Notes under the pieces: generated by a model
Told to the model about the DNA's origin: nothing
Databases searched by the model: none
Seen by the model: the letters and a program-made list of their open reading frames with translations, nothing else
Shown here: positions 33,772-34,802 of the stretch, in pieces
How positions within the stretch are numbered: the first letter of the stretch is position 1
Layout of the letters: each line of letters starts with the position of its first letter
DNA from: Escherichia phage vB_EcoM-VpaE1
DNA: 64,000 nucleotides
Reading direction: 5' to 3' (one strand)
Sequence record: KM657822
Made by a program: the position numbers and the translations under genes

Positions 33772-34212
33772 TTAGAAAGGTTTTCTACGTTGCTTGTTAA
33801 TGTTAGCTTTCATAGCAGCTAAATGGTTTTGCTGTTCAATCAGTCGTGAGCGTTCTTGATGGCTAAGTGCCATAGTGTTCACATTCTCAATCGCTTGAGT
33901 GGCTTGCTTTAAAGCGCGACCAATCTTACCAGACATTTTACGTTTTGCAATAGTTGCTTGATGCTTAGGTTCAACCACACGATAACCAACACCCATTGAA
34001 GCAACCAGATAAATCTTCTCTTCTTTAAGAAGCTTCTCAATAAACTTCTCAAGTCGGTTTAGACGTGTAAGCGCATAAGCCTTCATTTCATCTTCGTACT
34101 TAACAATGTCACCTTGATAAGTTGGCTTCACAATACCTAAGAAGGTGTCCATCTCAGAGTGTGATACAGTGTCACCGTAACTAAACTTTGCTGCTAATGC
34201 TTTTGTATTCAT
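33772..34212 (-). CDS. hypothetical protein (repeat-flanked cassette gene 2)
   Basis: 146 aa ORF, start 3 nt after upstream stop; C-terminus basic. Confidence 0.45.
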   Translation of the reverse strand: MNTKALAAKFSYGDTVSHSEMDTFLGIVKPTYQGDIVKYEDEMKAYALTRLNRLEKFIEKLLKEEKIYLVASMGVGYRVVEPKHQATIAKRKMSGKIGRALKQATQAIENVNTMALSHQERSRLIEQQNHLAAMKANINKQRRKPF

Positions 34213-34214
34213 AA

Positions 34215-34802
34215 TTAAACGTTACCTTCTGAAATAACTTCTACAGAAAAACGACCAAAGCGTGGACGCCAATCACCTACACCACAAAGGTTACCAGCAT
34301 TTTCCAGAACCATCAGGAGTTCCTCTCGGGTAATTTGCTCTTCATCGAACATCAAACCAAACTCTACAGACCAATCACGGAAGATTGGACGGTAGCTCAT
34401 AACTCGTGCTGTACCAATCTTAACAGATTTAGCATAGATAAAATCTGGATTCTTAGCAAGTTCTTGTGGGTTTGCTGGACAGTTCTTGATAGTCATTGGG
34501 AAGACTACATCTGTCAGCATAATGGCTCGGTCAATTACCTTACCAAGTTTGTTGAGCTTTGCACCAGACTTGATACAAGCCTCAATCATCTCACCGTTCA
34601 TAACAAAACCAAGTTGCTCATCGTAGTAACAAGAAGTTACCAGTTGACTTTCTGCTAAGAGCGCATAGTCTTCGTCAGTCTTTTTACGTTTACTGGACAG
34701 AGACTTGTGATATTTTGTCAGAGGGTTTAATGGGTCTGACAGCGTATCGTTATGGCTCAAGAAAGGACGAGTACCAGTGATTTTGACATTTAACAGTTTC
34801 AT
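34215..34802 (-). CDS. hypothetical protein (repeat-flanked cassette gene 1)
   Basis: Start taken at ATG (MKLLNV...) behind GGAG; track GTG start at 34817 also possible. Confidence 0.45.

Follow-up and report, generated by a model that had tools for sequence, protein, structure and literature searches.

A type II VIPR locus with its own set of guides in the Felix O1-like Escherichia phage VpaE1

In the genome of Escherichia phage vB_EcoM-VpaE1 (KM657822), two open reading frames (ORFs) of 195 and 146 residues lie between two blocks of short tandem repeats (33471-33745 and 34877-35300). Positions here count from the first letter of the 64,000-nucleotide stretch that we analyzed, called the window below. 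What do these genes encode, and what are the repeats for? An earlier note, made from the sequence alone, had described the pair as a cassette without recognizable motifs and as a candidate for an undescribed accessory system. We find that VpaE1 is a Felix O1-like phage and that its region 33420-35356 very probably forms a single locus of the type II VIPR (Viral Interference Programmable Repeat) kind, with guide RNAs of which at least three are coded to silence a satellite of Escherichia coli. The system is not an undescribed one: VIPR was reported in two 2026 bioRxiv papers (bioRxiv 10.64898/2026.04.26.720920, 10.64898/2026.04.26.720927), and the VpaE1 locus is a member with its own guide set.

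As described in these papers, a VIPR system comprises a minimal RAMP-like protein, Vipr, an accessory vap gene and guide RNAs called vrRNAs, each with 9-16 tandem YNNGG units and a structured 3' tail. One Vipr protomer sits on each GGY and leaves the NN dinucleotide exposed, and the NN read double-stranded DNA with every third base skipped; in phage SUSP1 an R-loop triplex represses transcription without cutting (bioRxiv 10.64898/2026.04.26.720920, 10.64898/2026.04.26.720927). The VpaE1 locus lies wholly on the minus strand, in the order promoter, vrRNA a-c, vipr, vap1, terminator, vrRNA d-e and final terminator. Its genes and guides are as follows.

35147..35261, minus strand: vrRNA a, 16 GGY/NN units (35261..35182) and a 35-nucleotide pseudoknot tail (35181..35147)
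35025..35109, minus strand: vrRNA b, 10 units (35109..35060) and tail (35059..35025)
34878..34987, minus strand: vrRNA c, 15 units (34987..34913) and tail (34912..34878); orphan guide
34215..34802, minus strand: vipr (ORF A), a 195-residue RAMP-type protein predicted to bind the guide-RNA repeats
33772..34212, minus strand: vap1 (ORF B), a 146-residue VIPR accessory protein
33609..33708, minus strand: vrRNA d, 13 units (33708..33644) and tail (33643..33609)
33472..33576, minus strand: vrRNA e, 14 units (33576..33507) and tail (33506..33472)

Two genes and five guide-RNA genes

The two ORFs are co-oriented and, as the earlier note had held, tightly coupled, since their junction reads TAA-TT-ATG. 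The ATG of ORF A has a GGAG nine bases 5' of it, and a GTG start at 34817 is unlikely because it overlaps this ribosome-binding site. Both ORFs fall in PHROG families of unknown function (E=3.6e-97 for ORF A and E=7e-76 for ORF B) and have homologues (525 for ORF A, and 234 for ORF B in an exhaustive HMMER search), so we take both to be real genes. Pfam, PADLOC and Rfam returned nothing for either ORF or for the repeats, in line with the reported lack of motifs; however, this does not extend to the PDB, where a sequence search matched all 195 residues of ORF A to 36pp_D, 'SUSP1 Vipr protein' (E=2.1e-127).

ORF A and SUSP1 Vipr are identical at 189 of 195 positions (97%). The residues that the cryo-electron microscopy (cryo-EM) VIPR paper names as contacts to the GGY, the skipped base or the non-target strand (bioRxiv 10.64898/2026.04.26.720920, 10.64898/2026.04.26.720927) are kept in VpaE1: H17, K33, R39, E71, M72, K82, G87, K88, R138, C173, D177, W178 and R179. 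The protein thereby has the makeup of a type II Vipr, a minimal RAMP with G-loop, thumb and GGY-contacting residues. The vipr/vap1 slot is also the same in both phages, between the ligase gene and a 127-residue gene; in SUSP1, vipr lies at 28474..29061 and the gene downstream of it at 28031..28471.

ORF B is identical at 145 of 146 positions (99%) to that SUSP1 gene, and with this identity and its place directly downstream of vipr it corresponds to the vap1 of a type II locus, its DNA binding being putative. A word-indexed search found near-identical proteins only; the 234 homologues from the exhaustive HMMER search are distant, unnamed proteins of 140-200 residues that have in common the motif G-x-G-Y-R-(I/V)-x-x-P-x-x-Q. 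An AlphaFold2 model built on an alignment of these distant relatives (predicted local distance difference test score, pLDDT, 96.2) predicts a small alpha/beta N-terminal half, with short helices and a beta-hairpin at residues 68-80, followed by long helices. Foldseek found nothing significant for this model in the PDB; the top weak matches (E>0.6) were winged-helix DNA-binding domains of SaeR, histone H1 and ScpB, and those in BFVD were uncharacterised phage proteins. Vap1 is probably a DNA-binding protein, which agrees with, and does not go beyond, the published prediction that type II vap genes encode DNA binders; SUSP1 vap1 enhances protection (bioRxiv 10.64898/2026.04.26.720920, 10.64898/2026.04.26.720927).

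The repeats turned out to be more than brackets or regulatory sites: they are guide-RNA genes, the programmable half of the system and its functional core. We scanned both strands of the whole window for runs of at least 8 consecutive pentamers fitting GGY and found exactly five tracts. Every one of them is on the minus strand and in one or other of the two intergenic regions flanking vipr-vap1, so the bracketing of the genes is not due to chance. Among the 68 units (16, 10, 15, 13 and 14 in vrRNA a to e), position 2 is G and position 3 a pyrimidine in every one (68/68 each), and position 1 is G in 56. Positions 4 and 5, the NN, have entropies of 1.73 and 1.85 bits and hold 14 different dinucleotides. 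These are tracts of 9-16 YNNGG units with a constant GGY and a hypervariable NN, as in the vrRNAs of type II VIPR.

A 35-nucleotide tail, of one of two sequence types, follows each tract. A gap-free alignment of 12 distinct tails, taken from the window, from phages KhF3, bumzen and SUSP1 and from three satellites, supports an H-type pseudoknot of the kind that ends type II guides, with compensatory changes in 9 of 11 pairs. Stem 1 is paired throughout (100%), with three of its four pairs covarying, and in stem 2 six of seven pairs covary. Overall 88.6% of the cells are paired, against 30-45% with slid partners, and none of 500 shuffles was as good as the observed alignment. Two of the guides recur in other phages: guide c is identical to one in KhF3, and guide b has 10 units where its counterpart in bumzen has 12.

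Short tandem repeats beside small, probably DNA-binding genes are also found in ParR/StbA centromere and iteron arrays, and the repeats could accordingly be protein-binding iterons, a centromere or operator array, with the two ORFs as a DNA-binding partition or regulatory pair. The repeats do flank the genes, Vap1 is weakly winged-helix-like, and the GenBank record of KhF3 labels an 11-nucleotide repeat, located in the vrRNA-bearing intergenic region by the ligase gene (KT184315.1 86014-86024), 'possible binding site of StbAB'. However, the VpaE1 repeats are transcribed-strand RNA modules with a pseudoknot tail and variable positions that match targets. Their periodicity is strictly strand-specific, the tail pseudoknot shows RNA-type compensatory changes, and the leader hairpins described below are stable only as minus-strand RNA, through their G.U pairs. 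The variable dinucleotides spell satellite genes under a one-base skip, which is not expected of iterons, and the orthologous SUSP1 RNAs have been sequenced and seen on Vipr by cryo-EM. Furthermore, there is no ParM/ParA-type partner gene nearby, nor such a Pfam domain in either ORF. Strand specificity, RNA covariation and decoded targets together exclude the partition reading for practical purposes, and we give it a vanishingly small chance; VIPR supersedes the 'StbAB' annotation of KhF3.

Predicted targets of the guides in an E. coli satellite

Because the VIPR paper infers that satellite and phage have structural genes in common, we searched complete E. coli genomes with a phage structural homologue, window 19846-20646, the counterpart of SUSP1 protein YP_009199407. 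Of 5426 genomes, 474 had on the chromosome a 'phage baseplate protein' gene, with a DNA identity of 70-93%, which puts the satellite in about 9% of them; strains EC12 and TB182A are among its carriers. Seven satellite loci were retrieved, elements of ~9-11.5 kb at different chromosomal insertion sites that carry a serine recombinase, tape-measure and baseplate genes and a number of small genes; most variants have an HNH gene too. Each satellite also contains a ~2.5-kb stretch without annotated genes.

The five NN codes were compared with the satellite loci at skip lengths of 0 to 3. Outliers appeared only at a skip of one base, and skips of 0, 2 and 3 gave background scores of 17-21. Guide a matched at 29/32 positions (91%) in loci L007 and L013 and at 28/32 in L004, in the 185-residue first gene of the satellite operon. 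For guide d, 12 consecutive units were perfect (24/24) in L010, with 24/26 (92%) over the whole guide and a score of 23 in L009; its target is the antisense strand of the 184/185-residue satellite gene, that is, the same family as the target of guide a on the other strand. When IMG/VR was scanned for the exact pattern of guide b, a single locus came up, L013, which is a further variant of this satellite; the guide matches its tape-measure gene at 20/20. The best match of guide e was 22/28, in a 107-residue satellite gene of L005, L007 and L008. The predicted sites lie at L007 6014-6060 for guide a, L013 1887-1859 for b, L010 6743-6703 for d and L005 7676-7716 for e. When the order of units within each guide was permuted 300 times, the observed score was reached by none of the permutations for guides a and d and by one for guide e.

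The base that guides a, b and d skip is the wobble base of a codon, as reported for VIPR (bioRxiv 10.64898/2026.04.26.720920, 10.64898/2026.04.26.720927). These three guides match their satellite genes at 80% or more of the NN positions with a one-base skip, the mark of a natural VIPR target, and they are coded for these genes. Guide e is probably coded for a satellite gene as well.

Guide c was scanned against eight satellite variants, with three 10-unit sub-patterns in IMG/VR and with one each in GTDB and the JGI metagenomes. The matches found, of at most 26/30 on unrelated and mostly AT-rich contigs (Pelagibacteraceae, Ignavibacteria etc.), were rejected as chance; the one match at 48% GC, on locus L014, was also set aside, since E. 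coli genomes contain nothing that corresponds to it. An exact match to the 10 central units of guide c, its core, was absent from every enterobacterial species-representative genome. An orphan guide is in line with the literature, since 20 of 41 guides of the SUSP1 clade could be assigned (bioRxiv 10.64898/2026.04.26.720920, 10.64898/2026.04.26.720927). Guide c has been kept in more than one phage and may have a still unsequenced mobile element as its target.

The targets bear on the suggestion that the cassette serves anti-defense or host takeover, so that its proteins or guides would act on host defense systems or host genes and not on a satellite. Because VIPR can be programmed, it could in principle be directed at the host, and guide c, which has no identified target, leaves a small opening. 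In a broad sense silencing would even be counter-defense, given that satellites can act as a population-level defense. However, three guides fall with high significance on the satellite and not on the flanking host genes, the lack of an exact enterobacterial match for the core of guide c speaks against a host target, and neither PADLOC nor anti-defense families gave a match. In the SUSP1 clade, 18 of 20 decodable guides are on the same satellite phage (bioRxiv 10.64898/2026.04.26.720920, 10.64898/2026.04.26.720927). In its usual sense, then, the suggestion does not survive, the decodable guides being aimed at the satellite and not at host genes or defense systems, and we see only a slim chance that it is right.

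The satellites have guides of their own. Minus-strand vrRNA genes with a phage-type pseudoknot tail are present in L007 (~4233-4120), L009 (~4983-4870) and L010 (~4682-4580), without a vipr. Since there is a vrRNA gene and no vipr, the satellites presumably borrow the Vipr of the helper phage. The guide of L010 matches other satellites at 20-21/24; compared with VpaE1, the satellites' own guides gave no target, and the other guide matches only a REP (repetitive extragenic palindromic)-like host repeat. The targeted 185-residue satellite protein showed no similarity to Vipr.

Predicted expression signals, absence of the module from relatives and strength of the assignment

The signals for transcription and possible processing of the locus are these.

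35329..35356, minus strand: sigma-70-type promoter TTGACA-16-TATACT, predicted, upstream of vrRNA a; 11 of 12 consensus positions
35259..35299, minus strand: leader hairpin L1, 19 bp with G.U pairs, directly 5' of vrRNA a
35107..35147, minus strand: hairpin L2, 19 bp, between vrRNA a and b
34839..34876, minus strand: hairpin after the vrRNA c tail and ahead of the ribosome-binding site of vipr
33745..33760, minus strand: intrinsic terminator after vap1, AGCCTCTTCGGAGGCT then a T-run, 12 bases past the ORF B stop
33572..33606, minus strand: hairpin L3, 16 bp, between vrRNA d and e
33420..33472, minus strand: probable terminator of the downstream guide array, a 19-bp stem-loop (inverted repeat I4) then a T-run

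The promoter recurs in SUSP1 and in phage EC6 with at most one base different, and judged by its sequence it is likely to be active. The terminator after vap1 is the one that the earlier note had placed directly downstream of the pair. The stem-loop at the end of the array is conserved in SUSP1, KhF3, bumzen and EC6 and probably acts as a terminator.

Long near-perfect hairpins (16-20 bp, G.U-rich) stand directly 5' of three of the five guides, a, b and e. As minus-strand RNA, L1, L2 and L3 fold at -20.2, -23.3 and -13.0 kcal/mol (z = -6.2, -8.1 and -4.0), against -9.7, -12.6 and -5.7 kcal/mol for the plus strand, which folds about half as well because the G.U pairs are lost. For the minus-strand hairpin before vipr the predicted folding energy is -13.6 kcal/mol (z = -3.25). 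Stems of 16-20 bp are typical substrates of ribonuclease III (RNase III), and the hairpins before guides a, b and e may be RNase III-type processing signals that release the guide RNAs. The short 'type S' leaders of guides c and d have no significant structure (z = -0.3 to -0.7), which limits this idea to the long leaders. Neither VIPR paper mentions RNases or guide processing (bioRxiv 10.64898/2026.04.26.720920, 10.64898/2026.04.26.720927).

We then compared the locus across related phages. A 2.3-kb query around it found 255 phage records with 80-99% identity. Most are phages of Escherichia, Salmonella and Shigella, and those examined are classed as Felixounavirus. The vipr-vap1 DNA is found in 116 phage records at 90-99% identity, 110 of these at 95-99%, whereas the ligase gene next to it is found in 294, with an identity of at least 80% in 257; more than half of the relatives thus lack the module. 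Where present, it is more conserved than its flank. The presence/absence comparison in relatives called for by the earlier note thus bears out its view of the pair as a discrete accessory module, which is also a dispensable one.

In EC6, which lacks both genes, only 273 bp separate the ligase gene from the 127-residue gene (JX560968.1 44674-44946), and tblastn did not find vipr or vap1 anywhere in the genome. Besides promoter and terminator, what is left in this gap is a leader hairpin and a single guide of 9 units with a pseudoknot tail. Four GGY of the remnant guide have decayed to TGT, and the guide has no satellite target. EC6 looks as if it had lost the genes by recombination between the guide scaffolds on either side of them, with the gap as a deletion scar. 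Leader and tail scaffolds that are repeated on both sides could allow vipr-vap1 to be deleted or swapped by homologous recombination; if true, this would explain both the loss of the module in more than half of the relatives and the chimeric 'solo' guide of EC6 without vipr. That all three proposals hold jointly, with the hairpins as RNase III sites, scaffold recombination destabilizing the module and an unsequenced element as the target of guide c, is possible but rather doubtful.

On an unrelated 61-kb metagenomic phage-like contig of JGI, Ga0214472_10000321 (2840-4220 of locus L057), a vap1-like gene (pairwise E=4e-4) comes after a Vipr of only 49% identity, with GGY/NN tracts on both sides. 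The same layout at 49% Vipr identity indicates that the vipr-vap1-repeat arrangement is conserved over a long evolutionary distance, a point on which the cassette of the earlier note holds up. The guide tail of this contig is a simple hairpin, GCTAC-TTT-GTAGC, and not a SUSP1-type pseudoknot.

The remnant in EC6 raises the possibility that the VpaE1 locus is itself a decaying, non-functional remnant, and a non-G first base in 12 of the 68 units and the one orphan guide would fit such decay. However, active SUSP1 guides also have degenerate first bases, both VpaE1 ORFs are intact with all key residues kept, and promoter, ribosome-binding sites and terminators are intact as well. Guides b and d match their targets at 20/20 and 24/24, which drift would erode. 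Intact genes and signals and perfect target matches make a dead remnant very improbable, close to negligible.

Several points weigh against a working VIPR locus aimed at the satellite. Guide e, at 22/28 (79%), is under the 80% cut-off of the VIPR paper, and its skipped base is off the wobble position of the annotated frame. Guide c has no credible target in the satellites, IMG/VR, the GTDB species genomes or the JGI metagenomes. The self-target scan covered 64 kb of the ~88-kb genome; within it no guide targets the phage itself, the best self-match being 23/32 (72%) and the others lying at background. Neither Pfam nor PHROGs has a family for the satellite target genes, and their function is not recognizable, so the benefit to the phage is an inferred one. 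Guides d and e lie downstream of an intrinsic terminator and have no recognizable sigma-70 promoter of their own, so their transcription needs read-through or a promoter of a kind not recognized here. Finally, vrRNA expression, Vipr co-purification and target repression have been shown for SUSP1 only (bioRxiv 10.64898/2026.04.26.720920, 10.64898/2026.04.26.720927).

The surroundings of the locus offered some further observations. Between the ligase stop and the VIPR promoter, an ORF of 48 residues, strongly hydrophobic (MFSTVILFILVVFVLSYVASKLL..., window 35363-35509, minus strand), occupies a spot that has a different sequence in SUSP1, and the ORF is absent in EC6. Just downstream of the guide array, the 127-residue ORF (window 32997-33380, minus strand) has a signal-peptide-like start, MKKILLAAAMVMAMNSPVNA, and an HTH_3 regulator (32491..32820) lies three genes beyond it. 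The DNA polymerase gene appears to be split (window 37109-38446): window 37131-37662 and 38446-41273 align to adjacent parts of a single SUSP1 polymerase gene, and the insert of ~780 bp holds a 78-residue HNH-like ORF (37877..38113, minus strand). On the plus strand, 25 tRNA genes are clustered at window 1080-5917. The GC skew changes sign at window ~30000 and ~41000, and the minus-strand gene block bounded by these two points includes the ligase and polymerase genes as well as the VIPR locus.

Proposed mechanism and relation to other RNA-guided systems

By analogy with SUSP1, the locus would be transcribed and cut into guide RNAs of ~85-115 nucleotides, as small-RNA sequencing showed for SUSP1; for VpaE1 we infer this step from its near-identical promoter, leader and tail sequences. 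Vipr protomers would then polymerize on the GGY motifs into a helical filament, with the 3' pseudoknot as its cap and the NN exposed, as expected from the cryo-EM structure of a 97%-identical protein. The NN would pair with double-stranded DNA while every third target base is skipped, and an R-loop triplex would block transcription without cutting, as in SUSP1. By our computed matches, guides a, b, d and probably e would direct this to the ~11-kb satellite, at the 185-residue gene on both strands, the tape-measure gene and the 107-residue gene. In this way the phage may silence a satellite that would otherwise hijack its tail parts, and Vap1, a probable DNA binder, would boost the effect, as shown for SUSP1 vap1.

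The closest known system is the type II VIPR of SUSP1 itself, which has the same promoter, leader hairpins, two tail types, terminators and GGY/NN grammar as VpaE1 and the same class of natural target, an E. coli satellite. However, SUSP1 is a Suspvirus and VpaE1 a Felixounavirus, with genome DNA identity of about 76-88%. SUSP1 has four guides, one upstream and three downstream of the genes, whereas VpaE1 has five, three upstream and two downstream, and none of the five VpaE1 NN codes equals a SUSP1 code. What VpaE1 adds to the published system is small: the 3+2 layout with different codes, the strand-specific hairpins and the orphan guide. The leader hairpins, the idea of an instability that leaves solo guides and the orphan guide are details absent from the text of both VIPR papers.

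The VIPR papers liken the system to class 1 CRISPR-Cas with its Cas7-type RAMP proteins, with which it shares a RAMP fold with G-loop and thumb, RNA-guided recognition, one protomer per repeat unit and periodically flipped target bases. In contrast to CRISPR-Cas, the VpaE1 locus has no repeat-spacer array, its repeats having a 5-nucleotide period without spacers and no PADLOC match, and no cas1, cas2 or nuclease genes adjoin it; the neighboring ORFs encode a ligase, small hypothetical proteins and an HTH (helix-turn-helix) regulator. A VIPR guide is a 5-nucleotide periodic GGY/NN array of which two bases are read per unit with a one-base skip on the target, and the system is phage-encoded and silences rather than cuts.

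Against the PLE satellite of Vibrio cholerae, the lytic phage ICP1 uses a CRISPR-Cas system of its own, a full type I-F one, which takes up spacers and degrades its target. ICP1 and VpaE1 are alike in that a lytic phage aims an RNA-guided system of its own at its parasitic satellite. They differ in the means: VpaE1 makes do with guide genes that are fixed, a single RAMP-like protein and an accessory protein, and would repress transcription.

VIPR is a recently reported class of RNA-guided DNA recognition with a gapped code, two of five bases on the guide and two of three on the target; it has been proposed to predate CRISPR, and phages use it against competing mobile elements (bioRxiv 10.64898/2026.04.26.720920, 10.64898/2026.04.26.720927). 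The VpaE1 locus opens no new question about it; what remains of interest is how the guides are made, what Vap1 does, how the module is gained and lost, and the orphan guide c. The published code is independently reproduced here, in that VpaE1's own, different guides decode to the same satellite family. With this assignment, two 'hypothetical proteins' and a set of puzzling repeats in more than 100 Felix O1-like phage genomes become an annotated system.

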